A DNA stretch of 15,278 nt. Source: Sandaracinaceae bacterium. GTDB taxonomy: Bacteria; Myxococcota_A; Polyangia; Polyangiales; Sandaracinaceae. A program made the position numbers and the translations under genes. Positions 1 through 15,278 of the stretch are shown in pieces (positions within the stretch are counted from its first letter, which is position 1; every line of letters begins with the position of its first letter). Location: positions 1 to 15,278 of the forward strand of contig JBGAQA010000134.1 in the NCBI GenBank assembly GCA_044220955.1, given 5' to 3'. The notes beneath the pieces were generated by a model that had not been told where the DNA came from, did not search any database, and worked only from the letters and a program-made list of their open reading frames with translations.

Positions 1-1122
<1,122 letters not shown>

Positions 1123-1133
1123 CCGACCGGAGA

Positions 1134-2732
1134 CTACGCCAAGGGAGGCACGCTCGGGGCGGTCGGCGGAAGAGAGACCCGGTTTCGCCCTTCCTTCTTC
1201 GCGACGTAGACGGCGCGGTCCGCGCGCTGCACGAGGGCTGCGCCGTCCTCGCCCTCCTCCAGCTGAGCGACCCCGATGCTCACCGAGAGGTGGCCCAGGG
1301 GCTGGCCCGCCGCCGAGGGCAGACCGATGTTCGCCACGCCCTCGCGCAGCTTCTCGCCCACCTTGATCGCGTCGGGCTCGGCGGTGCGCGACAGGATCAC
1401 CACGAACTCCTCGCCGCCGTAGCGGGCGACCATGTCGACCTCGCGCAGCGACGCCTTGAGCACGCGGCTCACCTCGACGAGCGCCTCGTCGCCCGCGGCG
1501 TGACCCTCGCGGTCGTTCAGCTTCTTGAAGTGATCGACGTCGATCACCATCACGCTCAGCGGATGACCGTAGCGCTTGGCGTCGGCCATCTCGCGCGCGA
1601 GCCGGTCCTTGAACGAGCGACGGTTCGGGAGCGTCGTCAGCTCGTCGTGCGTCGACAGCTCCTCGAGCTTCGCGAAGAGGCGCGCGTTCTCGATCGCGAG
1701 CGCGGCCTGGTCGGCGAGCGCGCCCACCAGGCGCGTCTCGTGCTCGGACATGCGGTCGCTCGGCGGCCGCGTGAGCGCGAGCATCCCGATCATCTTGCCG
1801 CCCGCGCGGATCGGTACCGACATGAACGAGCCGGTCCGCTGCACCTCACCCCAGAACGCGAGGTAGCTCGGCGCGTCGCCCACGTCCGAGATGAGGACGG
1901 ACTTGCCCGTCTTGAGCGCCTCGCCGGTCGTCCCCTCGCCGGGCTCGACCTCGCGCCCGAGCACCTTCTCGGGCGCCTCGAACCCCGACACGGCGCGGAT
2001 GGTGAAGCGCCCTTCCTCGTTCTCGAGCAGGATGGCCACCTCCCGGAAGCGCATCACCGCGCCGAGACGGCTCGCGAGCATCGAGAGGACGCTGTCGAGG
2101 TCGTGCGTCTTGCTGCTCTCGCGCAGGACGTCGAAGAGCATCTGTCGCTCGCGCAGGCGCTGCTCGAGCTCGCTCGTCACGCGGGTCAGATCCTGCGAGA
2201 GCACGAGCTCGCGCGTGCTGTGATCGGGCGAGCTGCGGCTCGCGTCGCGGTCGAGCGACACGGTCCGCAGCAAGCGGTTGATCGCGAGCGTGACGCGGTC
2301 GAGCTCCTCGTCCTCGACCGGGATCGCGGTCGTCGAGCGCTCGGCCGCGCGCTGCTCGATCAGCTCCGCGACGCGCGAGAGCCGCCGCGCGAACACCCTC
2401 CGCACCACCACGAACGCCGCGATGCCGGACGCGAGCGCCGCGGCGAGCACGCCGAAGAGGGCGCGCGGGTCGGTGACCCCGCCTGCGAAGAGGGCCACCG
2501 CCACGGCTCCGCCCGCGACGAGCCCCCAGACGAGGGCCGCCACGCCCACCCGCCCCGCCACGCGGCTCCCGAGCGAGATCTCGGGCGGCGTCACGGCGGG
2601 CGGCCGCGTGATGCGTCGCGCCGTCGGCGTGGGGTCGCGACGCGCTGGGCGAGACGGAGGTGTGGAGGTGGGCACGTGCGGCCGGGAGGCGACGGAAGAA
2701 GAAGAAAGGGACGGAGCCGAGGGCTTCATCAT
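1134..2732 (-). CDS. Membrane-anchored sensor diguanylate cyclase (2 TM, HAMP-like/coiled coil, GAF, GGDEF)
   Basis: STHDELTTLPNRR, IDVDHFKKLNDREGHAAGD, RYGGEEF with a canonical RxxD I-site (REVD, five residues before GGEEF), SVSIGVA and RADRAVYVAKKEGRNR. The GAF domain (SFMSVPIRAGGKMIGMLAL) ends in QAALAIENARLF. Two hydrophobic helices lie near the N-terminus. I placed the start at the ATG-ATG at 2732/2729 because the track start (2804) overlaps the tRNA promoter -35; the start is uncertain. Confidence 0.93.
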   Translation of the reverse strand: MMKPSAPSLSSSSVASRPHVPTSTPPSRPARRDPTPTARRITRPPAVTPPEISLGSRVAGRVGVAALVWGLVAGGAVAVALFAGGVTDPRALFGVLAAALASGIAAFVVVRRVFARRLSRVAELIEQRAAERSTTAIPVEDEELDRVTLAINRLLRTVSLDRDASRSSPDHSTRELVLSQDLTRVTSELEQRLRERQMLFDVLRESSKTHDLDSVLSMLASRLGAVMRFREVAILLENEEGRFTIRAVSGFEAPEKVLGREVEPGEGTTGEALKTGKSVLISDVGDAPSYLAFWGEVQRTGSFMSVPIRAGGKMIGMLALTRPPSDRMSEHETRLVGALADQAALAIENARLFAKLEELSTHDELTTLPNRRSFKDRLAREMADAKRYGHPLSVMVIDVDHFKKLNDREGHAAGDEALVEVSRVLKASLREVDMVARYGGEEFVVILSRTAEPDAIKVGEKLREGVANIGLPSAAGQPLGHLSVSIGVAQLEEGEDGAALVQRADRAVYVAKKEGRNRVSLPPTAPSVPPLA

Positions 2733-2803
2733 GCCGGTTCGGGCCCGCGCATGCACGCCCGCGCCGCCTTGTACGCCCCGGAGGGGCGCCCTGTTCCTCG
2801 CCA

Positions 2804-2839
2804 TTGACAGAACGGCGCGATGGGAAATACTCGCGGCCC
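2804..2839 (+). promoter_or_regulatory. Sigma70-type promoter for tRNA-Met
   Basis: Perfect TTGACA (2804-2809), a 16-bp spacer, AATACT (2826-2831) and a GC-rich discriminator (cgcggccc); the -10 lies 12 nt upstream of the tRNA. This layout is typical of stable-RNA promoters. Confidence 0.7.
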
Positions 2840-2843
2840 TTTC

Positions 2844-2917
2844 GGCGACGTAGCTCAGCTGGTTAGAGCGGGCGTTTCATACGCGCTAGGTCAGTGGTTC
2901 GATTCCACTCGTCGCCA
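2844..2917 (+). tRNA. tRNA-Met (CAT), elongator type; CCA not encoded
   Basis: Acceptor stem GGCGACG/CGTCGCC with discriminator A; D arm GCTC-AGCTGGTTA-GAGC; anticodon arm GGCGT-TTCATAC-GCGCT; T arm AGTGG-TTCGATT-CCACT. The paired G1:C72 and the absence of three consecutive G:C pairs in the anticodon stem exclude the initiator. The TTCATAC loop and GGCG start favour elongator Met over Ile2. Confidence 0.95.
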
Positions 2918-2937
2918 TCCGAAAGCTCCACGGGAAC

Positions 2938-3786
2938 GTGCCCCGCCAGCGAATCGCTCCGGTCGCCGCCCTCGCAGGTCTCGGGGTCCTCGCGGTGGCG
3001 CTCGCGCTGCTCGCTCGGAGCACGGGCGAGGGGCTCGAGGAGCGTCGCGCGGCGGTCCTCGACGCAGGGACGTGGGCCGGCGACGGCGGCGGCCCCCCCG
3101 AGGCGTCCGGCCTCGACGCTGCGATCGCGCACGGCGCGGGGGAAGACGCCGCCCCGCGCGGCGAACGGTACGCGTGCGCCCTGCCGGACCTGCCCGTCAC
3201 CCGCGATGCTCGCTGCGATGCGGGCGCGCCCTACCCCGCGTGTCGCTGGCAGCTCCCGGACACCGCGGCGGCGGGCGGGCTCTACGTCGTGTGGCGCAGC
3301 ACGACCCCGGAGCACCGCTGGGCGCGCCCCGGCCTCGTCACGCTCGTGCTCGCGGCGGCCCGCGAGTACCAAGGCCGCTGGCCGGGCGAGCATCTGACGA
3401 TCGGCGATCTCGATGCCGCGGGCCCACGACACCAGACCCACGACCGCGGCGTCGACGTCGACCTCTACCTCGAGCACGCGATGCTCGACGTCAACGAGGG
3501 CCCGCACCGCTACGTCGACAACTACGCGAGCCGCACGCCGGCCGAGGTGGCCTCCCTGCGCGAGCGCGTCACCGACCTCGCGCGCATCCTCGCGACGTGC
3601 AGCCGCGGGCGGCTGCGGATCTACTACAACGACCCCGAGGTCCTCGAGCCCTTCGTGGCCTGGTTCGCCGAGCAGGGCTTCGTCAGCGACGTCGGCCCCG
3701 CGATGACGATGCACAACCGCCTGCACCGCTTCCACTTCCACATGACCGTCCCCGAGGACCTTCCGCCCCTCGGCGGACCCGGATGA
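2938..3786 (+). CDS. Exported or membrane-anchored MepA-like (peptidase M74, LAS-type) Zn metallopeptidase; putative murein endopeptidase
   Basis: N-terminal hydrophobic segment. RWARPGLVTLV...LTIGDLDAAGPRHQTHDRGVDVDLY provides the H-x6-D motif and the C-terminal HRFHFHM provides the HxH motif, matching the MepA pattern (IGD....H.SHQ.G.D.D ... H..H.H). The GTG start is uncertain. Confidence 0.75.
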   Translation: MPRQRIAPVAALAGLGVLAVALALLARSTGEGLEERRAAVLDAGTWAGDGGGPPEASGLDAAIAHGAGEDAAPRGERYACALPDLPVTRDARCDAGAPYPACRWQLPDTAAAGGLYVVWRSTTPEHRWARPGLVTLVLAAAREYQGRWPGEHLTIGDLDAAGPRHQTHDRGVDVDLYLEHAMLDVNEGPHRYVDNYASRTPAEVASLRERVTDLARILATCSRGRLRIYYNDPEVLEPFVAWFAEQGFVSDVGPAMTMHNRLHRFHFHMTVPEDLPPLGGPG

Positions 3787-3796
3787 CGCCGAGGCC

Positions 3797-3825
3797 CGAA
3801 ACCAAGTAGGTTGTCGCTCGTCCAA
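3797..3825 (+). promoter_or_regulatory. Candidate ECF sigma-factor promoter for the A2M-like pair
   Basis: GAAAC (3798-3802), 16 bp, then CGTCCAA (3819-3825) in the 100-bp intergenic gap, about 60 nt upstream of the ATG. This matches the common ECF consensus AAC-N16-CGT(C). Confidence 0.55.
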
Positions 3826-3886
3826 GCGGGGGACGGGCGGGATCGCCCCTCCATCGCGTCACGGCGAGCCGTCGAGGAACGAACTC

Positions 3887-6800
3887 ATGATCGAACGATC
3901 GAAGCTCTGGCTGCTCTTCTCCGCGTTCTGCCTCGTCCCTGCGTCCGCGCTCGCCCAGGGCGCCGTCGAGGAAGGCGCGCACGTCGGCTACGAGATCGCG
4001 CTCTCGGGCAATCCCTCGTCCGAGCGCGGCGCGGATCTCGTCCTGACGGGCATCGCCTACGAGGTCGAGGGACTCGCGACCCTGCGGCCGACGGCGGGGC
4101 TCGAGGTCGAGGCGCGCCTCTACGCGTACCAGCCCTCGGACGGATCGCAGTACGCGGTCGTCACCAGGACCTCCCGCAGCACGGCGGGTGGACAGTTCGA
4201 CGTGACCCTTCGGCTCCCCGAGGAGACCCTGTCGAGCCCCTACCTCGAGCTGCGCGTACATCGGGTCGGGCAGCCTGGGCGCACGTTCCAGTACCCGCTC
4301 TCGCAGCTCGCGAGCCGCACCGCGACGGTGATGACCGACCGTACGCGCTACGAGCCGGGCGAGACGGTGCACGTGCTCGCGCTCGTGCGCGCGGTGCGAG
4401 ACCTCGCGCCCGTCGCGCAGCGGTCGATCCAGCTCGACGTGCTCGACCCCTCGTACACGACGTTCCTCGAGCGTGAGCTCCAGACGGGCTCGTCCGGCGC
4501 CGTGCACACCGAGGTGGAGATCCCCGAGTCGGCCGTGCCCGGCACCTACCAGATCCGCGTCTCGTTCGACCCAGCCAGCGCGCCCGTCGTGCGCAACATC
4601 GAGGTCTTCCAGCGCACCGTCGAGCGCGTGATGGCCTCGATGACCATCGATCAGGACGTCGTCGCGCCGGGCGAGCACATCACGGGCAGCGTTCACGTCA
4701 CGACGCCCTCGGGCGCCGCCGTTCGCGGAGCGGAGGTCGAGCTCCACATCGGGCGCGGCTCGGGCGAGATCACGCGGCTCGTGACGGACGCGGCCGGCAT
4801 CGCCCGCATCGACGGCACCGCGCCGAGCTTCCTCAGCGGCGAGGTGTCGATCGAGACGGCCTGGGCGCGCATCTCGCACCCGGCGTACGGGACGATCACG
4901 GCGAGCGCCTCGTTCACGCTCTCGCGCACGCGCTGGCTCGTCTCCGCGATGCCGGAGGCGGGCGGCCTCGTGCCCGAGGTGGACTCGCAGCTCTTCTTGA
5001 CGGTCAACGACGCGCGTGGTCGCCCGATCACGGCCGGTGCGACGATCGACATCGTCGGCCTCGGCCTCGCCGGTGGACGGCAGCACCTCACCGTCGACGC
5101 GCACGGCGTCGCGATCGCCACGGTCCGCCTGCCCCGCGGCGCCGCGGCGCGCCTCTCGGGCGGCGACTGCGCCGGGCGCGGCGTGTCCACCACGTTCGAG
5201 GTGGAGGTGGGCACCGTCCCGCCGATCTCGGCATCGATCTGCGCCGGCGTCGCGCTCGACGCCCAGGTGCTCGCGCGCGTGCGCGCGCCGATCGCGGCGC
5301 CGGGAGCGCGGGTCGAGGTGGATCTGCTCCGTCGGCCCTCGGCCTCCGGGCGCGTGGTGCTGCTCGAGGCTCTCTACGGATCGCGGGCGGTGGCGTCCGC
5401 GTGGGTGGCCGGCGGCGCGTCGAGCGGCGCGCTGACCATGCCCGCGGGCCTGCAGGGCGTGATCTCCATCCGCGCGCGCCCGATCGCGGCCCCCGACGCG
5501 CGCCAGCCCGTCGACCAGCCCGGGGCGACGCTCTTCGGGGTCGGCTCGTCGGCGGCCGTGCTGCTGCGCCCCGCGGACGCGTTCTCGCTCTCGGTCACGC
5601 CCGACCGCCCGCTCCACGGCGTGCGGGAGCACGCGCAGGTGGCGGTGGCGACGAGCGGCCCGCCGACGCAGACCTGGATCACGCTCGTCGCGCGCGACGA
5701 GGCGCAGCTCGACGGAGAGGGCGACTACGCCATCGAGTGGATCCTGGGCGAGCTGCGCGAGGCCGTGCGCGCGGGGCCGGGCACCGCGCACGACCGCTTC
5801 GTCCGGACGGCGCTCGCGGCCGGGCTCTCGGCCGACGTCCAGGAGACGCACGCGCCGCCGCTCGTGACCGAGCCCTGGGACGACGCGAGCCGCTACTACG
5901 GATCGGGGGAGGGCGTGCTCCGCGACCCGGTCGCGATCCGCGAGGAGCTCGTCCGCCGCGGGATCGGGCAGGCCATGGGCGCGCTCGAGGGGCAGGTGTC
6001 GCAGCTCGGCAGCGATCACGAGCTGCGCGATCAGATCACGCGCGCGGCCGGGCGCCGCGTCGAGTTCGCTCCGGACGTGCTCGCCTGGATGGTCTCGCAG
6101 GGGACGATCGACCCGGGCTCGGTGACCACGCTGGGCGGGCAGCCCATGACGGCGGCGATGCTCACGCAGGCCGATCCGAGCTTCAGCTTCGACAGCGTCG
6201 CGCGCCGCGTGGCGCGCTCGCGGCTGGTCCGGCTCCTGGTCGCGCTCTCGTCGCTGACCAACGCCGACGACGCGGCGGCGCTGCGCGCCTCGCAGGGCGC
6301 GCCGCCGGATCGCTGGCTCTCGCTGCTCGTGCAGCTCGGGATGCTCGAGCCGGACGCGCTGGTCGATCCCTGGGGCCACGCGTTCGTCCTGCGCCGCGTC
6401 ACCGGGCGGCACCCTGCCGTGGTCGTCAGCGAGCGGGCGATCGACTGGGAGCTGAGCTCGCCGGGCCCCGACGGCGTGGCGGGCAACGCCGACGACGTAC
6501 GCGATCCCTTCGCCCGCGCGGTGCCGCGCGGGACGCCCTACGCGGTGGTCTCGGGCGAGGACGCCCTCATGGTCCAGCTCTCGCAGATCGCCCCGGGCGA
6601 GCAGGTGCTCTCGGCGATGGCGCGGGCCTACCAGCGCATCGGCCTGGCGGCGCAGGAGGAGATGCGCGGAGGCATCGTGACCGCGACGGGGAGCGAGGCC
6701 TACGCCACGCCGATGGCGCCGATGGCGATGGAAGCACAGATGATGGAGGACGACGCGTCCGGCGCGGCCGCGTACGATGGCGAGGGGTACGGCATGGGCG

Positions 6801-9046
6801 GCCTCGCGTCGCGCTCGATGGCCATGGAAGCGCCCGCGCCGCCGCCCCAGACGGTGTCTCCTTCGACGCCGCCCGCCGACACGGATCACGATGGCATCCT
6901 CGACCAGGCCGACGTGATGCCCGCGATGGGCTCGCTCATCCGCGAGGACTTCCCGGCCACGCTCTTCTACCTGGGTGAGCTCGCCCTCGACGCCCAGGGC
7001 CACGCGAACATCGACGTCCCGCTGGCGGACGCGATCACCACGTATCGGATCGAGGCGATCGCCTGGACACAGTCCGGCTGGATCACGTCGGGCCGCGGCG
7101 CCGTGCGCGTGGATCAGCAGGCCACGGTCGATGCGCCGGTGCCCGAGGCGGCGACGATCGGCGATCACATCCGCATCCCCGTCCGCGTCCAGAACCGAAC
7201 GGGCGCGCCGCTGCGCGCGCGGATCGAGATCGCGGTCGAGGGAGAGATCACCGTGCAGGTCGGCGCGACCGGCGTGGTGGAGGCGCCTGCGCACGAGGCC
7301 GCCGAGCAGATCGTGGAGCTCACGCTCACCGGTCCGGGTCAGGGCGCGCTCGTGGTCCGCGCGACGACCGAGGACGGAGAGGCGCTCGACGCGGTGCGCA
7401 GGCCGATGCACGTGTACGAGGACGCGCGCCTGGTCCGACAGCACCTCGAGACCCTCGTGCAGGACGGCGCCAGCGTGACGCTGACGCTCCCGTCGCGCGC
7501 GCTCGACCGCGGCGCGGCGGAGCTACGCCTCTCGGTGGCTGGCGCCATCTTCGGCGACCCGGCGGCGCTCGCGTCGGCCGATCCCTTCTGGGGAGGCTTC
7601 GCGTACGCGATGGACGGCGAGACCCTGCCGGACGCGCTCGCGCAGCAGCTCTCCCAGTGGTGCCACTACCAAGAAGACTACGGCATCTCGCCCGATCAGT
7701 ACTTCGCCGGGCGGGATCCGTTGCAGCTCGCGCTCGCGGTCGGCGCCCTGTACACGAACGACGCGCTCGACGCTCAGTCGCTCGCGGGCGCGCTGCGCGC
7801 GATCGCGGTCGCCTTCCCCGCGTCCGACACGGCCGCGACCGACGATGCGTCGCGCTACGGCTATCCCCCGGCGCGTTCGCCCGCGAGCCTCACCTTGCTG
7901 GCGCTCGCGCCCGCGGCTCGCTCGACCGCCCGCGCCGACGGGCGCGCGCAGCTGGACGAAGTGCTCACGCTGCTGCGACGCGCCGCCGGTGCGGAGGGCG
8001 CGCAGGCGGTGGAGTCGCCCGAGGCCTGGGCGCGCGTGGCCGCGGCGCTCCTTCTGACGCGACGCCCCGGCGACGACGGCGCTCGCGCCGACGAGATGAT
8101 CCGCCGCGCGGAGCGCTCGGTGATCACGGTCGGGGACATCGCCTGGCTCGAGCCGGACGCCGAGGACGGCTCGGTCGAGCCGCGCGTCGCGCCCACGGCG
8201 CTGCTCGCGCTCGCCCGCATCGCGCGCGGCGATCGCGTCGGCGCGCTCGCGCTCGTGCGGAGCCTCGCGGAGGTCACGCGCGGCGCACCGCACTGGCCGA
8301 CGGCGCCACGCGCGTTCGCGAGCGCCGCGGCCTCGTTGCTCGCGACGGGCGTGGGCACGGGGCCACTCTCCATCACGCTCGACGGCGCGCCCGTCGAGGT
8401 CGGCAGCGACGGCGCCGTCGTCGTCGCCTCGCTGACCGAGGCCTCGCGGCCGGGCGCGCACGAGCTGCACTTCCAGCTGCCCGACGGGGCCCTGGCGCTG
8501 ATGCGCCTCGACCTGCGATACGGCCTTCCGTGGGACGTGGAGCCCGATCGCGCAGCCCCGGTGGAGATCGAGTGGTCGGGCGAGACCGGTGCGCGCGACA
8601 CGCGCTCCGGCATGTCCGTGACCGTCTTCAACCGCGGCACCCGCGTGCTCACCCGGCCGACGATCGACATCGAGATGCCCGCCGGCACCGAGCTGGACGA
8701 GCCCACGCGCGAGGCGTTCGCGGCGCTCCTGGCCGAGCCGGCGACGATCGAGGGCACGACGCTGCACCTGGTGCTCCGCCCCATGGCGCCCGCCGCCGTG
8801 ACCCGCATCCCCGTGCGCGCACGCTGGTCGCTGGCCGGCTCGCTGCGCGGGCTCGGCGTGAGCTTCGTCGACGAGGCAGGGCCGAGCGTGGACGGCATGC
8901 ACCCGACGGCGATCCTGGTGTCGCGCACGGTGGAGATCGCCGACCGCGGGCCCGAGGTGACGTCGCAGCCGGCCGACATCGCGCCCGAGCCGCAACCGCC
9001 ACCGCCACCCCCCATGCCCCGTCCCCTCGCGGAGGTGCTCCGATGA
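3887..9046 (+). CDS. Secreted alpha-2-macroglobulin-like (MG2 domain) protein A, 1719 aa, no canonical thioester, with a GspG-like insertion
   Basis: GAGGA RBS; Sec-type signal peptide ending ALA|QG; MG2 signature TDRTRYEPGETVHVLALVR (from 4334); A2M-domain signature IREDFPATLFY...DAQGHANIDVPLADAITTYRIEAIA (from about 6940); GDHIRIPVRVQNRT; a helical TED-like region; C-terminal IDIEMPAG receptor-binding-like domain. No CGEQ/CxEQ. Confidence 0.85.
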   Translation: MIERSKLWLLFSAFCLVPASALAQGAVEEGAHVGYEIALSGNPSSERGADLVLTGIAYEVEGLATLRPTAGLEVEARLYAYQPSDGSQYAVVTRTSRSTAGGQFDVTLRLPEETLSSPYLELRVHRVGQPGRTFQYPLSQLASRTATVMTDRTRYEPGETVHVLALVRAVRDLAPVAQRSIQLDVLDPSYTTFLERELQTGSSGAVHTEVEIPESAVPGTYQIRVSFDPASAPVVRNIEVFQRTVERVMASMTIDQDVVAPGEHITGSVHVTTPSGAAVRGAEVELHIGRGSGEITRLVTDAAGIARIDGTAPSFLSGEVSIETAWARISHPAYGTITASASFTLSRTRWLVSAMPEAGGLVPEVDSQLFLTVNDARGRPITAGATIDIVGLGLAGGRQHLTVDAHGVAIATVRLPRGAAARLSGGDCAGRGVSTTFEVEVGTVPPISASICAGVALDAQVLARVRAPIAAPGARVEVDLLRRPSASGRVVLLEALYGSRAVASAWVAGGASSGALTMPAGLQGVISIRARPIAAPDARQPVDQPGATLFGVGSSAAVLLRPADAFSLSVTPDRPLHGVREHAQVAVATSGPPTQTWITLVARDEAQLDGEGDYAIEWILGELREAVRAGPGTAHDRFVRTALAAGLSADVQETHAPPLVTEPWDDASRYYGSGEGVLRDPVAIREELVRRGIGQAMGALEGQVSQLGSDHELRDQITRAAGRRVEFAPDVLAWMVSQGTIDPGSVTTLGGQPMTAAMLTQADPSFSFDSVARRVARSRLVRLLVALSSLTNADDAAALRASQGAPPDRWLSLLVQLGMLEPDALVDPWGHAFVLRRVTGRHPAVVVSERAIDWELSSPGPDGVAGNADDVRDPFARAVPRGTPYAVVSGEDALMVQLSQIAPGEQVLSAMARAYQRIGLAAQEEMRGGIVTATGSEAYATPMAPMAMEAQMMEDDASGAAAYDGEGYGMGGLASRSMAMEAPAPPPQTVSPSTPPADTDHDGILDQADVMPAMGSLIREDFPATLFYLGELALDAQGHANIDVPLADAITTYRIEAIAWTQSGWITSGRGAVRVDQQATVDAPVPEAATIGDHIRIPVRVQNRTGAPLRARIEIAVEGEITVQVGATGVVEAPAHEAAEQIVELTLTGPGQGALVVRATTEDGEALDAVRRPMHVYEDARLVRQHLETLVQDGASVTLTLPSRALDRGAAELRLSVAGAIFGDPAALASADPFWGGFAYAMDGETLPDALAQQLSQWCHYQEDYGISPDQYFAGRDPLQLALAVGALYTNDALDAQSLAGALRAIAVAFPASDTAATDDASRYGYPPARSPASLTLLALAPAARSTARADGRAQLDEVLTLLRRAAGAEGAQAVESPEAWARVAAALLLTRRPGDDGARADEMIRRAERSVITVGDIAWLEPDAEDGSVEPRVAPTALLALARIARGDRVGALALVRSLAEVTRGAPHWPTAPRAFASAAASLLATGVGTGPLSITLDGAPVEVGSDGAVVVASLTEASRPGAHELHFQLPDGALALMRLDLRYGLPWDVEPDRAAPVEIEWSGETGARDTRSGMSVTVFNRGTRVLTRPTIDIEMPAGTELDEPTREAFAALLAEPATIEGTTLHLVLRPMAPAAVTRIPVRARWSLAGSLRGLGVSFVDEAGPSVDGMHPTAILVSRTVEIADRGPEVTSQPADIAPEPQPPPPPPMPRPLAEVLR

Positions 9047-12000
9047 AGCGCGCGATGTCGAAACGCGGAATGCCGAACCGCGCGCTGCTTGGCGTCCTGG
9101 CCAGGGCCGCGCTCGTCGTCTGCTCCGTCGTCTCCGTGGGCCATGCCTCGGCGCAGGCCGCGGGCCACGTCGCGCTCCGCGGGGAGGTCCACGGCGTGGA
9201 GCTCTCGCTCGAGGGCGGGATGACCGTCACTCGCGGCGGAACGCTCCGCTGGCTCACGACGGTCTACGAGGTCGTCGGCCTGAGCGAGCTGCGTCTGGCG
9301 CCGCACGCGGAGATCCAGGTCACGACCCAGCTCGATCCGACGGCGCCGCCGGCGGTGTTCCACGTGGACGCGCACGGGCGCGCGACGGTGGACGTTCCCG
9401 TCCCGGCGGACGCGCCGGAGTCGTTCGGCGTGGTCATCCGGGTGCTGAGCGGGCCTGCGCAGCGGCGCTTCGAGCTCTCCGTGCACACGCAGGATCCCCG
9501 CGACCTCCGCCTCTGGGTCGCGCGCACCTCCGTGCCCGTCGGCGGCACGATCCAGGCTTTCGGCCGGCTGAGCGACCGGCAGTCCGGGCGGCCGATCGCG
9601 GACGAGGTGGTGCGTCTGGTGCTGCTCGACGACGCGCAGCGCCCCGTCGGCGCGCCCGTGCCCGTGACGACCGACGCGGCGGGCCTGTTCGCCAACGTGT
9701 TCGGCGTCCCGAGCGACATCCAGGGATCCATGTCGATCACGGCGACCGTCGGCGTGCGGGGCACCCGCGCCTCGGCCACCGCGTCGCTCGGCGTCGAGGC
9801 AGCGCGGGACACGCCGATGCTCGTCAGCCTCGCCCCGGAGCGGAGCATCCTCGAGCCCGAGTCCACCATCTCCGTCGAGGCCGTCGTCCGCACCGGCGAC
9901 GGGCGGCCCGTCGAGGGCGCTCGCATCGAGTTCCCGCCCGTCACGCCGGGCGCTCGATCGGGCATCGTCACCACCGACGCGCGCGGCCACGCGAGCTTCC
10001 GCTGGCGTGCGCCGGCGATCGGCGGTGCGTTCATGGACACCTCCATCGGCGTCTCGGTCAGCCGCGAGGGGCTCGGAGCGCTCGGCGCCGACGCGCCCGT
10101 CCGGATCGCGCGGGTCGAGCGTGCGGTCTCGTTCGGCGTCGAGGGCGGTGCGCTCGTCCCCTCCATCGGCGGGCGTGTCTTCGCGCGCGTCGTCGAGATC
10201 GACGGGACGGCGGCGCCCGCGGGCGTCTCCGTAGAGCTCGCCGGCCCGCGCCTGACGTCGCGCACCGCCACCACGGACGCGAGCGGCATCGCCGTGTTCG
10301 ACGTCACGCTCGGCGCGCTCGCCGCCGGGGTGCAGGACCGGTGCGGCGGAGACGCGGCGACGGCGCTGACCCTCGATGCAGCCGGCGCGACGCCCCTCGA
10401 GGGCTGCATCCCGCTCGACCCCGACGGCACCGCGCGCATCCGCGCGTCGAGCGCGGTCGTGCGTGCGGGCGCCACGGTTCACTTCGACCTCGCGCGAGCG
10501 CCCTCGGTCGCGCGGCTCCCGATCGCGATCACGGTCGTCGGCCTCGACGGGACCCCGCGCTCGTTCGTCGACCTGGTCGTTCCCGGCAGCGCCAGCGGGG
10601 CGGACGTGACGATCCCCGAGGGGTTCTCGGGCATCCTGGTCGTGCGCGCGCGACCGCTCCACGGCGCGACCGAGCGGCCACTGCGCGGCGGCTCGACGAG
10701 CGTCTGGGCCGTCCCGGGCGATCTCTACGCGCTCACCGGCCAGCTCGGGGCGAGCGGCGCCGACATCCAGGCGCGCGAGGACACCCGGGCGTACGTCGCG
10801 GCGCTCCCCGTCGACGACGCCCACGCGCTCGCGGCGCGCCTGCGCGGCGAGCTGCTGCGCACGTTCGGCGATCTTCGCGTCGATCCGGGCGCGGCGAGCG
10901 GATCGCTGCTCGCCGCCACGCTCTCGGTGATGACCCCGCTCGACGTGGCCGCCCCCTGGGTCCTGCGCGGCTCGAGCGTGGAGGCGGTGCCGGCGCCCGA
11001 GAGCCCGGAGTCGCTCGCCGTGCTCCGCGATCCGTGGCGCTCGCAGGCGCGCTTCGTCGAGGGCCGTCTCGCGCTCGTGTTCCAGGCGATCGAGCGCTAC
11101 GTCGCGGCCGCGGTCCCCGAGCGCATCGAGGACGTCGCCGTGCAGACCGGCAACCACTGGGACTTCAACGCGCAGATCCTCGCGGCCGTCGCCGACGGAG
11201 GCGAGCTCGGTGCCGAGGGCGCGACGGGCCTCGGCGGCGAGGATCTCACGGTGGCGGGGCTGCGCGGCTTCGACCCGGCGTTCACCTACGACTCGGTGGC
11301 GCGCCGCATCACGCGCGAGCGCCTCTTCCGGCTGCTCGTCGCGCTCCGCACGTACGTCCGGCAGCAAGGCTTCGATCTGCCCTGGGCGCGCCTCGGTGAT
11401 CCGACGACCTGGCTCGTGCACACGACCGAGGTCTACGTGCAGCCCTTCGGCTCGGTGCAGGCGCGAGAGCTGGTCGACGGCTGGGGCCGGCCCTTCGTGC
11501 TGCGCCCGACGAACGGGCATCCGCGCTTCGGCTCGTGGTCGCCGCTCGACGGCTGGGAGATCACCTCCGCCGGTCCGGATGGAACGGCCGGCAACGGCGA
11601 CGACGTGTTCGATCCGACCGCGCGCGTGCTGCCGACGACGAGCACCTACGGCCGCGCGGTCGGCGAGGACGCGCTCGTCGCGCGGCTCGCGGGCGTGGAG
11701 CTCGGCCGCGCGGCGGTCGAGCTGCTCGGGCAGTACGAGGGGCAGTACGCGAGCGGCGTCCCGGCCAGCCCCGACGCGGCCGCCGTGTCGCGCGGCCTCG
11801 CCGTCTGGCAGGACGTGCCCAGCGTGTTCGAGCCCGACCCGACGCCCCTCGCGCTGCGTCGGCCGAACGTGCCGACGCTCGCCGCGGGCGGCGCGATCGC
11901 GTCGCTCGACGGAACGTCGATCCCGCTCACGTTCGACGAGGAGCCGCGCACCTGGGGCCTCGTGGCTCTGGCGTACTCGGCGGCGGGAATCCCCGCGGTC

Positions 12001-13797
12001 GTCGAGGCGCGCGCGCTCCGCGGCTCGCCGCTGATCGTGTCCTCGCGCTTCCCGACCCGCCTGCACGAGGCGGAGCCGGTGACGGTCACCCTCGCCGTGA
12101 CCAACGCCAGCGACACCGACCGGACGCTGGCGATCACGGTGACGGGCGAGGGCGCCCTGACGGGAGACGGCGTGCAGAGCCTGCGCGTGGCCGCGGGCAC
12201 GGCGGAGCTCACCCACGTCACGCTGCGCCCGAGCGGCGTCGGCCACGCGCGCGCGCTGGTCGCGTTCCGCGAGGGTGGCACGGCGCTTCGCACGCTGCGC
12301 TACGAGCTCTCGCTCGAGTCGGGGATGCATCCGCTCCGCTCGCGGATCGCGGGCGTCACGAGCGGTGGGACGTGGTCGGGCACGCTCGACGTCGAGGGTG
12401 GAGCCCAGCGTGCGACCGGGCGCGTCGTCGTGCTCGCGCCGAGCGGGCTGTATCGCGATCCCGACCTGGCCGAGGTGCGCGACCGCGACCCGGCGCTTCT
12501 CGCGTGGTCGGCCACGCTCTCGGGCGCCGGGCTCGACGAGGCGTTCCGCGCGGATCTGCTTCGGGCACAGAGCAGCGACGGCCACCTCGACGGGGACGAG
12601 CCGGTGCTCTCGACGGCGTGCGCGCTCGTCGCGTGGTCCGCGGCCGACGCCGAGGACGAGGGCGCCGCGGCCGCGCGCCAGCGCGCCATGGGCGCGCTCG
12701 ACAACGTGCGCTTCGGCGACACCGACGGGAGCGCGGGCGAGCTACGCGCGCAGGCGGCGCTGCTTGGCGCGCTCGCGCCGAGCGGCATCGCCGACGTCGC
12801 GGACGCCCTCGAGGGCGCCGTCGATCCGCTGGCGCGGCTGACCGCGCAGTATCGTGGCGCGCTGCGGCGGGCGCTGCGGCGCTATCCCGACGAGCCGACG
12901 CTCCTCGCGCGCGCGGCCGCCGCGCTGCTGCTCGCGAGCCCCGACGACGCGTACGGGCGGGTGATGTTCGAGCGTGCGACGCAGCACCTCCACGACGAGG
13001 GCGCGGGCCGGCTCGTCGCTGCGTCCGCGGGACGCGCGGGGCTCGGCGAGGAGATCGCTGCCTCGCTCGCGCTCGCGGTCGGAGCCCATCAGCTGGGCCA
13101 GGACGCGCTCGCGCGCTCGCTCGTCGCGGGCGCGGTCGCGCACGACAACCTCATCACGCGCGACGGGGGCGAGGCCCTCTTCTGGCTCCTCGCGACGGGC
13201 GCGTACGGCGTGCTCGGGAGCGACGCGGGCACGAGCGTGCGCATCTCCGCGGGTGGCCGGGCCACCGAGGCGAGCTTCGACCACGGCGTCGCCATCGCCG
13301 CGATCGATCACCCGGCGGGCGGCGTGGGGGTGTCGGTGAGCGCGAGCGGCGACGCGGTCGTGCTCGTGCGCGCGGAGGCGGCGTACGCCGTTCCGTTCGC
13401 GGCCGAGACACACGCGCCGATGACCTTGGCGCTCGAGGGCGATCCTGGCGCGGGCGAGGGCCTCTCCGCGCTGGAGCTGGTCGTCCACGCGAGCCGCGAG
13501 GTCGCGCATCCGGTCGTGCTGATCGAGCTCCCGGCCGGGATCGACCTCGAGGACGAGGGCCTGCTCGCGCAGCTCGCGCGCGCGGGCGGGGTGCTCCACG
13601 TCGAGGCGCGCTTCCCGGGCTTCGTGCGGCTCGAGCTGAGCTCGATGGCTTCGGGTGTGGACGTCCGCATCCCGCTCGCGCTTCGCTGGACCCTCGGGGG
13701 CAGCATCCGCGGCCTCGCGGCCGTGGCCTACGAGGCGGACGACCCGGATCACCGGACCGTGATCGCTCCCATCACCGTCGAGCGTGGCGCGAACTGA
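9043..13797 (+). CDS. Secreted alpha-2-macroglobulin-like protein B, 1584 aa, divergent paralog of protein A, no thioester, with a GspG-like insertion
   Basis: The true start is the ATG at 9043, which overlaps the upstream TGA (ATGA) and has GGAGG at 9031-9035; signal peptide ends ASA|QA. It is colinear with protein A: YEVVGLSELR vs YEVEGLATLR, a Cys pair, VLRDP, DPAFTYDSVARR vs DPSFSFDSVARR, GEDAL, IELPAG vs IEMPAG, and RWTLGGSIRGL vs RWSLAGSLRGL. Repeated TTDAxG Ig-like turns are present. The track's extension to 7657 is spurious. Confidence 0.8.
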   Translation: MKRAMSKRGMPNRALLGVLARAALVVCSVVSVGHASAQAAGHVALRGEVHGVELSLEGGMTVTRGGTLRWLTTVYEVVGLSELRLAPHAEIQVTTQLDPTAPPAVFHVDAHGRATVDVPVPADAPESFGVVIRVLSGPAQRRFELSVHTQDPRDLRLWVARTSVPVGGTIQAFGRLSDRQSGRPIADEVVRLVLLDDAQRPVGAPVPVTTDAAGLFANVFGVPSDIQGSMSITATVGVRGTRASATASLGVEAARDTPMLVSLAPERSILEPESTISVEAVVRTGDGRPVEGARIEFPPVTPGARSGIVTTDARGHASFRWRAPAIGGAFMDTSIGVSVSREGLGALGADAPVRIARVERAVSFGVEGGALVPSIGGRVFARVVEIDGTAAPAGVSVELAGPRLTSRTATTDASGIAVFDVTLGALAAGVQDRCGGDAATALTLDAAGATPLEGCIPLDPDGTARIRASSAVVRAGATVHFDLARAPSVARLPIAITVVGLDGTPRSFVDLVVPGSASGADVTIPEGFSGILVVRARPLHGATERPLRGGSTSVWAVPGDLYALTGQLGASGADIQAREDTRAYVAALPVDDAHALAARLRGELLRTFGDLRVDPGAASGSLLAATLSVMTPLDVAAPWVLRGSSVEAVPAPESPESLAVLRDPWRSQARFVEGRLALVFQAIERYVAAAVPERIEDVAVQTGNHWDFNAQILAAVADGGELGAEGATGLGGEDLTVAGLRGFDPAFTYDSVARRITRERLFRLLVALRTYVRQQGFDLPWARLGDPTTWLVHTTEVYVQPFGSVQARELVDGWGRPFVLRPTNGHPRFGSWSPLDGWEITSAGPDGTAGNGDDVFDPTARVLPTTSTYGRAVGEDALVARLAGVELGRAAVELLGQYEGQYASGVPASPDAAAVSRGLAVWQDVPSVFEPDPTPLALRRPNVPTLAAGGAIASLDGTSIPLTFDEEPRTWGLVALAYSAAGIPAVVEARALRGSPLIVSSRFPTRLHEAEPVTVTLAVTNASDTDRTLAITVTGEGALTGDGVQSLRVAAGTAELTHVTLRPSGVGHARALVAFREGGTALRTLRYELSLESGMHPLRSRIAGVTSGGTWSGTLDVEGGAQRATGRVVVLAPSGLYRDPDLAEVRDRDPALLAWSATLSGAGLDEAFRADLLRAQSSDGHLDGDEPVLSTACALVAWSAADAEDEGAAAARQRAMGALDNVRFGDTDGSAGELRAQAALLGALAPSGIADVADALEGAVDPLARLTAQYRGALRRALRRYPDEPTLLARAAAALLLASPDDAYGRVMFERATQHLHDEGAGRLVAASAGRAGLGEEIAASLALAVGAHQLGQDALARSLVAGAVAHDNLITRDGGEALFWLLATGAYGVLGSDAGTSVRISAGGRATEASFDHGVAIAAIDHPAGGVGVSVSASGDAVVLVRAEAAYAVPFAAETHAPMTLALEGDPGAGEGLSALELVVHASREVAHPVVLIELPAGIDLEDEGLLAQLARAGGVLHVEARFPGFVRLELSSMASGVDVRIPLALRWTLGGSIRGLAAVAYEADDPDHRTVIAPITVERGAN

Positions 13798-13802
13798 ACG
13801 GG

Positions 13803-13840
13803 CCCCTCACCCCACGCGATCCCCGTCGGCGGGGAGAGGG
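13803..13840 (+). repeat. BoxC/REP-like imperfect palindrome
   Basis: CCCCTCACCCC-acgcga-TCCCCG-tcgg-CGGGGA-GAGGG has a pyrimidine-rich left arm, a purine-rich right arm and a 6-bp inner hairpin. It resembles the CCCTCACCC...GGGAGAGGG extragenic palindrome family. Only one copy is visible here. Confidence 0.5.
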
Positions 13841-13867
13841 CTCGAGCTCCGGTAGAGTGGGGGGGCG

Positions 13868-14908
13868 GTGTTCTTCTTCTTCCTGCCCTGGGGTCACGAC
13901 CAGCCGGTCTACGAGCGGCCCTGGCTGACGTACACGCTCGTCGGGCTGTGCGCGCTCGTGTTCGCGTTCACCTGGTCCATGGAGGAGCGGGCCGAGGTGC
14001 AGCTCGAGGAGGCGGTCGTGCAGATCGACTCCGTGCTCGAGACGCACCCGGACGCGCGCGTGCACCTGACGATCTCGGGACTGCCGCGGCGCATCGAGGA
14101 GATCCTCGCGCCCCTGATCACGAGCGACGCCCGGCGGCCCGCCAAGGCGGGGGATGCCGAGCTGGAGGTGGCCGTGCGTCAGCTCGTGGTGGCGCTCAAC
14201 CACATGCCGGCGTTCGCGTACGGGTTCCAGCCCGGCGCGCCGCGGCTCGGGCGGGTCTTCTCGCACATGTTCGTGCACGGAGGCCTCGGGCACCTGCTCG
14301 GCAACATGCTCTTCCTGTGGCTCGCGGGCGGCGTGCTGGAGTGCTTCTGGCGGCGCTGGGCGTACCTCGCGCTCTACTTCGCCTCGGGTCTCGCCGGGCT
14401 GGCCGCGCACTTCGCGTCGGGGCCGGACAGCCTCGTTCCGGTCGTGGGGGCGTCCGGCGCGATCGCGGGGCTGCTCGGGGCGTTCGTCGTGGGCTATCCG
14501 CGCACGCGCATCAAGGTGGTCTGGTTCGGGTTCCTCTTCGTCCAGCCGCTCTTCGGCAACTGGAAGGTCCCGGCGTGGGTGCTCATCCCGCTCTGGGCGC
14601 TCATCGAGGTCGCCAACGCGTACCTCGGCGGGCAGGACGAGGGCGTCGCGCACTGGGCCCACGTGGGCGGGTTCGCGTGCGGGGCGCTGGTCGCGCTCGC
14701 CGCGCGGCGCATGAACCTCGTCGCCACGGACGCGGGGCACGAGGTCGCCGCGGGTGTGCCGGCCGAGCGCGGGGCAGCGCCTGCCGCGCCACGGGCCCCG
14801 CTCGCCGAGCTCCCGCTCCCCGAGCCACGCGTCACCGCTCCGTCTCGTCCGCTCGAGATCGACGCCAGCGAGCTGCCGGCACACGAGGACGACGTGATCG
14901 AGCGTTGA
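13868..14908 (+). CDS. Rhomboid family intramembrane serine protease
   Basis: SHMFVHGGLGHLLGNMLFLW (HxxxN), VGASGAIAG (catalytic Ser), AHWAHVGGFACG (catalytic His) and multiple TM helices. There is a soluble insert of about 70 aa after TM1 and a Pro/Ala/acidic C-terminal tail. Confidence 0.95.
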   Translation: MFFFFLPWGHDQPVYERPWLTYTLVGLCALVFAFTWSMEERAEVQLEEAVVQIDSVLETHPDARVHLTISGLPRRIEEILAPLITSDARRPAKAGDAELEVAVRQLVVALNHMPAFAYGFQPGAPRLGRVFSHMFVHGGLGHLLGNMLFLWLAGGVLECFWRRWAYLALYFASGLAGLAAHFASGPDSLVPVVGASGAIAGLLGAFVVGYPRTRIKVVWFGFLFVQPLFGNWKVPAWVLIPLWALIEVANAYLGGQDEGVAHWAHVGGFACGALVALAARRMNLVATDAGHEVAAGVPAERGAAPAAPRAPLAELPLPEPRVTAPSRPLEIDASELPAHEDDVIER

Positions 14909-14920
14909 GGGGGACAGCCC

Positions 14921-15278
14921 TCAGATCCCCTCGGGGCGCCGCGCGTCCGGCGCGCCGTCGAGGGCGAACGGATAGTGCACGGCGACGCTCCCACCCTCGG
15001 GCGGTGGGAAGCGGAGGTGGCTCATCACGTGCGTGAAGCAGCGCGTGACTGTGTCGTCGTGGAGCGCGTCCTCGAGCACGGAGGCGTCCGCGACGCTGCC
15101 GTCCTCTTGGATCGTGAACTGCATCGTGACGCGCCCCGCCAGGTCGGGGTGCGCGTCGAGCTCCCACTCGAAGCAGAAGCGGATCTCGGGCAGGGCGTCG
15201 CGGACGACGTCGCGGACGGCGATCGCGTCGAGGGTGCCGCGGTGCACCGGCTCGGACGAGGGCGAGGGCGAGGGCGAG
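14921..15278 (-). CDS. AgmX/PglI C-terminal (TonB-C-like) domain protein, 5'-partial
   Basis: The frame is open to the window end: SPSPSPSSEPVHRGTLDAIAVRDVVRDALPEIRFCFEWELDAHPDLAGRVTMQFTIQEDGSV...VTRCFTHVMSHLRFPPPEGGSVAVHYPF. This matches the myxobacterial pattern I..CY...L...P.L.G.V...F.I...G.V...C......FP.P.GG.V.V.YPF with its Cys pair. Confidence 0.85.
   Translation of the reverse strand, partial: SPSPSPSSEPVHRGTLDAIAVRDVVRDALPEIRFCFEWELDAHPDLAGRVTMQFTIQEDGSVADASVLEDALHDDTVTRCFTHVMSHLRFPPPEGGSVAVHYPFALDGAPDARRPEGI
15258..15278. repeat. (GAGGGC)n hexamer run encoding an SPSPSP linker
   Basis: gagggcgagggcgagggcgag at the window end; the same unit occurs at the window start. Confidence 0.85.

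Follow-up and report, generated by a model that had tools for sequence, protein, structure and literature searches.

Two adjacent genes in a 15,278-nucleotide stretch of DNA from a Sandaracinaceae bacterium (GCA_044220955.1, JBGAQA010000134.1, positions 1-15,278, which is contig C38 of the assembly; the whole stretch is called the window here) encode large proteins of the alpha-2-macroglobulin (A2M) superfamily that lack the thioester motif. The two genes, which we call A and B, form a real, conserved two-gene macroglobulin module, and both of their products carry a domain insertion that is unreported in the literature we searched; the mechanism by which the module would act is a proposal.

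A conserved pair of thioester-less macroglobulin genes

The start codon of B (ATG, 9043-9045) overlaps the stop codon of A (TGA, 9044-9046) as ATGA, and a GGAGGTG lies inside the last codons of A, 5 nt before this ATG. BLASTP aligns A with B at 28% identity across 927 columns (E 2e-48), and at 29% identity across the final ~190 residues (E 7e-11); on these alignments the two are colinear, diverged paralogs. An earlier note on this DNA had described two colinear, diverged A2M-like genes joined by an ATGA overlap with a ribosome-binding site, a description that holds for the 1719- and 1584-residue products. It had also described signal-peptidase-I-type leaders without a lipobox and the absence of CxEQ, and this is borne out by a motif scan of both proteins, in which the C.EQ thioester motif occurs in neither and no lipobox is found in the first 40 residues of either. 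Read by eye, the leaders are of the signal-peptidase-I type and end in AxA/Q, the slash marking cleavage (...ASALA/QG in A, ...GHASA/QA in B), and orthologs of A and B show the same pattern, again by eye. No long hydrophobic run follows the leader in A or B, and neither has a C-terminal hydrophobic segment. Export of both proteins through these leaders is predicted and likely. The C-terminal tail of A is proline-rich (PEPQPPPPPPMPRPLAEVLR; window 8990-9043), and its conserved last residues, ..AEV.R, overlap the GGAGGTG of B; the conservation of this end may in part be imposed by the overlap with the ribosome-binding site.

A and B belong to the A2M/complement superfamily, as judged from Pfam, a family profile and predicted structure. 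By Pfam, A carries MG2 (PF01835, 1.1e-18) and A2M (PF00207, 1.7e-09) domains; in B the MG2 match is weak and the A2M match (PF00207, 21.2 bits) is barely above the cut-off of 21, and homologs of B carry MG2, MG4 and A2M. A profile of 25 A-family sequences matches ECAM/YfhM (6.8e-13) and human A2M (1e-10) in the PDB, as well as C3, TEP1, A2ML1 and CD109. Single-sequence phmmer searches of the PDB with A and with B gave nothing at E<=1, and no NCBIfam model matches either protein. AlphaFold 2 (AF2) models were made for residues 540-1719 of A (82-sequence alignment) and residues 540-1584 of B (89-sequence alignment), with mean pLDDT of 83.2 and 88.9, respectively. In Foldseek both models match A2ML1, CD109, A2M, C5, C3, Salmonella A2M and ECAM with a probability of 1.00, at E 1e-20 to 6e-26 across ~740-850 columns (6.4e-25 for the A model against A2ML1).

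In these predicted structures the C-terminal MG7-CUB-TED-MG8/receptor-binding architecture is present in A and B, and the TED-like region of A is helical and lies inside the stretch aligned to A2M-family structures. TED_complement (Pfam) is not detected by sequence in the genome, although the TED fold is present by predicted structure. The B model differs from native macroglobulins by a root-mean-square deviation of 7.1-8.2, versus 14.6-16.8 from protease-activated forms, and this native-like shape of the model is compatible with a spring-loaded state. Together, MG domains, A2M, TED-like and receptor-binding-like architecture are found in the predicted structures of both chains, so the A2M-like character first read from the letters is upheld by Pfam and structure prediction. 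Superfamily membership stands despite the missing CxEQ, because the motif is also absent from type II bacterial A2Ms and from C5.

Among homologs, CxEQ occurs in one of 119 A-family and in none of 119 B-family proteins. The single case (P0114, 1619 aa) has CLEQ at residue 1187, in a context (ILRGCLEQLGRR) that is not obviously thioester-like, and it may be due to chance. In the TED-like domain of B, Cys1193 (window 12619-12621) lies in the motif LSTACA.VAW, and 58 of 89 B-family rows retain this cysteine; in the A-family column at C1259, just 2 of 82 rows have Cys. The Cys1193 of B is possibly a relic of the thioester cysteine.

The pair is conserved well beyond the window. Of 41 related genomes 33 have matches to A, and within the family of the window's organism the figure is 23 of the other 24; wherever a locus resolves both genes, B comes directly after A in the same orientation. 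Among the junctions of 19 distinct pairs (17 genomes), 16 overlap as ATGA or GTGA and three read TGA-NNN-ATG; by eye, GGAGG is present within the final codons of A at 17 of them. The conserved overlap supports the translational coupling proposed earlier from the window. In a same-genus genome A is 76% and B 77% identical to the proteins of the window, indicating similar evolutionary rates. The frames of A and/or B are in several pieces in two loci (L030, G038:C1; L031, G014:C5), through frameshifts or assembly errors.

Most Sandaracinaceae genomes contain two such pairs. The second pair of the genome studied here consists of A′, at 1094-6040 of contig C111 (minus strand), and B′, whose start at 1097 overlaps A′ as GTGA and which runs on into contig C234 (1-3458) across a 22-bp overlap of the two contigs, the pair being split by an assembly break. 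A response regulator with a helix-turn-helix domain precedes A′-B′ (L002:6284-6967, minus strand; L002 is the C111:1-6040 locus), and the second-type pairs of this genome and of one same-genus genome are both preceded by such a gene. In a maximum-likelihood tree A pairs with A′, as B does with B′ (SH-aLRT 99-100 for both groups), and from this grouping the split between A and B is older than the duplication of the pair, which was copied as a unit. This order of events is likely, not certain, because the root lies on one long outgroup branch. The outgroup is a third A2M-like gene (C53:1455-7289, a 1944-codon frame), which has the strongest PF00207 match of the genome (9.3e-18), no C.EQ and no match to the insert domain described below.

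A profile of that insert domain was used for a survey of the order, in which 36 of 121 genomes match (E<=1e-10), with four copies in 18 genomes, two in 13, six in one and one in four. Where a genome has two copies (13 genomes), both are on one strand of a single contig at a distance of ~5 kb in 12 cases and on two contigs in the remaining one. Pairs are found in families f1 (18 of 20 genomes), f9, f10, f13, f15, f17 and f72. In this survey single copies are confined to a sister family, f18 (4 of 20 genomes: G264, G249, G174 and G105; loci L032-L035), in whose loci no adjacent paralog lies beside the insert-bearing gene. The single gene of f18 branches outside the A+B clade (SH-aLRT 91), and it may represent the state before duplication. 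In a phylum-wide sample, A has matches in four of 251 genomes, all of this order, a count that is a floor because the first look in that search was stricter. Two complete genomes of Sandaracinus amylolyticus were searched and hold one pair only. Together, these surveys place the pair in at least seven families; being ancient and widespread in the order, it is not a one-off duplication, an outcome that the earlier note had named as one that would refute its idea.

The insert domain and the variable linker

In A as well as in B, an alpha/beta domain of ~250 aa that is modelled confidently follows the first half of MG6 and precedes the A2M domain. When the models are aligned by structure to C5, CD109 and Sa-A2M, the alignment begins at model residues 21-23 and picks up again past this insert, and in the models the insertion site is where macroglobulins carry the bait region and C3/C4/C5 the anaphylatoxin domain. 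The insert is the best-conserved region in both the A and the B families, and A- and B-type inserts have in common the motifs LRDP, DPxFxYD..ARR..R.RL, DPWG.PF and WE..S.GPDG..G..DD..DP. When the insert profile was searched against 1.84 billion representative proteins, 235 matched at 1e-30, 300 at 1e-10 and 578 at 1e-3; among the 150 matches listed, the insert lies at about residues 600-1000 of proteins of 1450-1800 aa or of apparent fragments.

Weak but consistent matches relate part of the insert to the pseudopilin GspG. Four of the six PDB matches of the insert profile are GspG (best 3g20, E 0.0088), and the Pfam family T2SSG is the sole family that recurs on inserts (11 of 20 members, best E 0.003). 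The likeness is limited to ~50-60 of the ~250 residues, where the insert core and GspG share the region DPWG..F/Y...S.GPDG..G..DD(I/V). Pfam finds no family on the isolated inserts of A and B, a search of the ESM Atlas with the insert alone gave no usable match, and a search for the T2SSG family in nine relatives at E<=1e-8 gave nothing; the PDB-wide structural search covered mainly model residues 407-1040 and scarcely the insert. In the genome itself, the best matches to the insert profile after the four macroglobulin genes are open reading frames on C188 (E 0.83) and C301 (E 2.3), both non-significant. The C188 frame has no Pfam match. The C301 frame aligns with the insert profile in hhalign (probability 88.9%, E 2.4e-6, 50 columns) and has the N-terminal methylation motif PF07963 (1.9e-06). 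It is a small pseudopilin gene (C301:37538-38008) with the prepilin motif GMTLVE and the C-terminus DAWDNPF...SNGPDGNPGTEDDI; none of the other top matches from this genome is confirmed as a pilin.

GspG has an N-terminal prepilin cleavage/methylation motif and a hydrophobic N-terminal helix, whereas the insert is internal and both features are absent from A and B. The insert, judged by its sequence, thus resembles a pilin-like module with a GspG-like core and would not itself be a pseudopilin, given its internal position and the lack of a prepilin motif.

The two proteins differ in the linker that follows the insert. In A, residues 927-1010 have pLDDT below 50 in the AF2 model, and among 82 homologs this linker is 52-107 aa long, rich in A/G/E/S/P, with a column conservation of 0.16 versus 0.57-0.62 in its flanks. 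The equivalent stretch of B is mostly ordered, with 16 residues below pLDDT 50 and a conservation of 0.35, and the linker N-terminal to the insert is hypervariable in neither protein. With its predicted disorder and hypervariability, the linker of A looks like a bait region, for which it is a candidate. The pseudopilin-like insert, this asymmetry between A and B, and the second pair in the same genome all go beyond what had been noticed in the window.

Gene layout and neighbouring genes

The assembly comprises 7.5 Mb in 301 contigs and is 87.9% complete, and the G+C content of the window is 75%. A third-position-GC filter yields seven genes in the window (Table 1). Two long antisense open reading frames opposite A and B, 3683-7444 (minus strand, 1253 codons) and 7861-12585 (minus strand, 1574 codons), were rejected as genes because they fail this filter, which recovers all the other genes, and are a usual artefact of DNA with 75% G+C. 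The span first assigned to the system, 3797..14908, starts 90 nt 5′ of the start codon of A.

Table 1. Features of the window, in window coordinates
Feature	Position	Strand	Evidence or remark
Ser/Thr kinase gene	1-1122	minus	Pfam and GC filter
GAF-GGDEF protein gene	1134-2804	minus	Pfam and GC filter
Sigma-70-like promoter match, TTGACA-16-AATACT	2804..2831	+	5′ of MepA-like gene
MepA-like (Peptidase_M74/LAS-type) gene, 282 aa, N-terminal membrane anchor or signal	2938-3786	+	
Gene A, thioester-less A2M-superfamily protein, 1719 aa	3887-9046	+	
Signal peptide of A, aa 1-23	3887..3955	+	ALA/QG cleavage read by eye
MG2 domain of A, aa 147-232	4325..4582	+	PF01835, E 1.1e-18
Insert domain of A, aa ~681-926	5927..6664	+	GspG-like core: DPWG at 827, GPDG at 860
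Hypervariable linker of A, aa 927-1010	6665..6916	+	predicted disordered, candidate bait
A2M (MG7) domain of A, aa 1026-1114	6962..7228	+	PF00207
Helical TED-like domain of A, aa ~1218-1485, without thioester motif	7538..8341	+	predicted structure
Coupling junction, GGAGGTG 9031-9037 and ATGA 9043-9046	9031..9046	+	
Gene B, thioester-less A2M-superfamily paralog, 1584 aa	9043-13797	+	
Insert domain of B, aa ~664-885	11032..11697	+	homologous to that of A; DGWG at 812, GPDG at 844
A2M (MG7) domain of B	11920..12135	+	PF00207, 21.2 bits vs cut-off 21
TED-like domain of B, aa ~1131-1395	12433..13227	+	
Receptor-binding-domain/MG8-like C-terminal domain of B, aa ~1457-1581	13411..13785	+	
Rhomboid-family gene	13868-14908	+	PF01694, 1.5e-26
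Short gene at window end		minus	GC filter

The gene upstream of A is MepA-like, and its family assignment is weak on sequence grounds: PF03411 scores 21.0 bits, under the cut-off of 25, and covers profile positions 18-94 of 240; an ortholog reaches 27.2 bits, and the NCBIfam MepA model matches the window gene at E 0.0014. H165, H168, D173, D175, H263, H266 and H268, arranged as H-x-x-H-x4-D-x-D and H-x-H, are invariant in six orthologs, a profile of which has no match in the PDB. For this gene a frame at 2820-3809 was rejected in favour of 2938-3786. Among 14 loci from other genomes, five have a MepA-like match: four place it directly 5′ of A, in the same orientation and with called gaps of 34-114 nt, and the fifth at a distance of ~5.5 kb; the other nine have no match, and no second-type pair examined has the gene beside it. 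The earlier note had left membership of this gene in the system unproven, and its linkage to the pair holds for part of the loci only. The promoter-like match at 2804..2831 is the only one in the window (shuffle mean 0.2) and is a consensus match alone; a joint transcript of the MepA-like gene, A and B may start here, in which case the three genes would be co-transcribed. No terminator-like site was found in the window.

The rhomboid gene downstream of B fares less well. It has no match in the 14 loci from other genomes, one of them same-genus, and its possible membership in the system falls with this result. A role as rhombosortase was considered and rejected, since TIGR03902 reaches 27.4 bits, with its cut-off at 84, and A and B, as would-be GlyGly-CTERM substrates, lack the C-terminal hydrophobic segment. 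From its profile match the gene is a generic rhomboid; it neighbours the pair in this genome alone and is not part of the system. The genes 3′ of B vary among loci. On the other side, the GAF-GGDEF gene, for a diguanylate cyclase, is divergent and is kept there in five of the 14 loci, hinting at c-di-GMP-linked regulation; in the window it is adjoined by the Ser/Thr kinase gene.

Possible roles of the paired macroglobulins

Bacterial A2M genes were reportedly first surveyed by Budd et al. in 2004. A and B are A2M-superfamily members of neither described bacterial type. Type I proteins (YfhM/ECAM, Sa-A2M) have a thioester, a lipoprotein signal and a pbpC neighbour, whereas A and B have none of the three, Pfam finding no penicillin-binding protein gene in the window. 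Furthermore, the MG2 of A (residues 147-232) has a position like that in eukaryotic A2M (126-224), and that of ECAM is at ~350-480, and from this position A and B appear to lack the extra N-terminal domains of ECAM. With type II proteins (YfaS, and MagD of magABCDEF) A and B share the character of exported A2M-superfamily proteins without CxEQ; the partners of type II proteins, however, are operon accessory proteins, whereas the partner here is a full-length paralog, and the ~250-aa pilin-like domain at the bait site sets A and B apart. DUF1175 and DUF2138, which we take to be the products of yfaT and yfaA, were found neither in the 87.9%-complete genome (with a positive E. coli control) nor in the loci. 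The suggestion that the context is neither that of yfhM-pbpC nor that of yfaS/mag is therefore sustained.

The eukaryotic A2M tetramer, A2ML1, CD109 and C3/C4/C5 are the top structural matches of the A and B models. Multimeric A2Ms cage proteases between subunits, as we propose for A+B, and complement proteins have a folded anaphylatoxin domain at the same MG6 insertion point as the A/B insert. In contrast, a eukaryotic multimer is built from copies of a single gene product and has thioesters, whereas here there are two diverged genes without thioesters, and the A/B insert is unrelated to anaphylatoxin or bait-region domains. Homologs are publicly annotated as ‘MG2 domain-containing protein’ or ‘alpha-2-macroglobulin family protein’. 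In the full-text literature searched, which holds few subscription journals, we found no paper on Sandaracinus and macroglobulin, none describing the arrangement and none joining the terms bacterial, macroglobulin, thioester and pseudopilin; searches for Myxococcus with alpha-2-macroglobulin, and for macroglobulin with heterodimer, periplasm and thioester, gave unrelated papers. This agrees with the earlier view of the arrangement as a candidate undescribed system.

For MagD, which also lacks a thioester, the available text of PMC5764988 describes non-covalent protease trapping and a need for operon partners for stability, and that of PMC12663445 describes protection against peptidoglycan-targeting type VI secretion system effectors by a mechanism that is unresolved. 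How thioester-less bacterial macroglobulins hold the protease is an open question in what is available of both sources (PMC5764988, PMC12663445). We tentatively favour the reading that the A and B proteins jointly protect the cell envelope as a non-covalent protease trap or sensor of two subunits, an inference to which we give slightly less than an even chance. A and B would be made in about equal amounts and would bind each other, as in the 1:1 heterodimer suggested in the earlier note, and an attacking protease would cut the exposed linker of A. The cut would trigger a conformational change in the MG/TED body, as in other macroglobulins. The protease would be retained without a thioester in a cage of the two large subunits, B forming the non-bait half, and the tethered pilin-like domains would act as a latch or contact module. 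A broader version of this idea, which we regard as doubtful, is that A and B represent a third bacterial macroglobulin class, an obligate two-gene heteromeric cage in which the second subunit replaces the thioester and a pseudopilin-derived domain replaces the bait-region domain; in this cage A would carry the bait and sense the protease, with B as the closing partner, and the class would have arisen by tandem duplication of a single-copy ancestor and then by duplication of the whole unit.

Several points weigh against joint action of A and B. Overlapping stop and start codons are common in high-GC operons and are no proof of complex formation. The characterised bacterial A2Ms, ECAM and Sa-A2M, are monomers, and the single-copy form in f18 presumably means that the fold can work alone. 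A search of proteins of 3010-5000 aa for an A-B fusion gave none, which is weak evidence. A mere spacer would also account for the disorder and hypervariability of the linker of A. Conservation is lowest in the TED-like domains (column conservation 0.34 in A and 0.44 in B), which fits a loss of thioester chemistry.

The single-copy relatives, the monomeric state of known bacterial A2Ms and the missing fusion would equally suit an alternative that we hold to be unlikely, namely that A and B are co-expressed but separately acting monomeric traps or binders with different targets, the overlap securing their co-expression. The linker and MG7/TED regions differ strongly between A and B, as divergent specificities would predict. 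However, the A-B order and the 4-nt overlap have survived duplication of the operon and persist in at least seven families, an odd copy number is seen in the order survey solely in the four f18 genomes, and B would be a poor stand-alone bait carrier, as it has no comparably disordered, hypervariable linker.

Less probable again is that the pair is an envelope- or peptidoglycan-associated scaffold or regulator rather than a protease trap, for example sequestering or controlling the MepA-like enzyme or foreign peptidoglycan-degrading effectors, with the pilin-like domain doing the binding. This would give a meaning to the MepA-like gene that stands directly 5′ of A in the same orientation, both in the window and at four of 14 other loci, and to its invariant His and Asp residues of metal-ligand type. 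It would also fit the ties of known bacterial A2Ms to cell-wall enzymes, in yfhM-pbpC and in the Mag complex as far as the available text of PMC5764988 describes them, and the insert domain, not TED, being the most constrained part. The MepA-like gene, however, is missing from most of the loci and from all the second-type pairs examined, its Pfam assignment is weak, and Pfam detects no peptidoglycan-binding domain in A or B.

Secretion of A and B outside the cell for predation or surface adhesion, and not for self-defence, is improbable: myxobacterial hosts have large secretomes, the leaders are of the signal-peptidase-I type with no membrane anchor in A or B, and Ig-like MG arrays are common in adhesins, but there is no sorting signal past the Sec leader, no C-terminal anchor and no long hydrophobic run, and the TED and receptor-binding architecture is kept, in the predicted structures, in the native-like arrangement of inhibitors.

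If the pair is merely two independent inhibitors, it would be a modest extension of a known family. Sandaracinus amylolyticus, with its one pair, would make genetics and biochemistry feasible if it is culturable and manipulable, which we presume it to be. The apparent recruitment of a pilin-like module to the bait site of a macroglobulin is an architecture unreported in the literature searched. Furthermore, a translationally coupled, diverged pair that was kept through duplication of its operon offers a natural test of whether a second large subunit can replace covalent capture.

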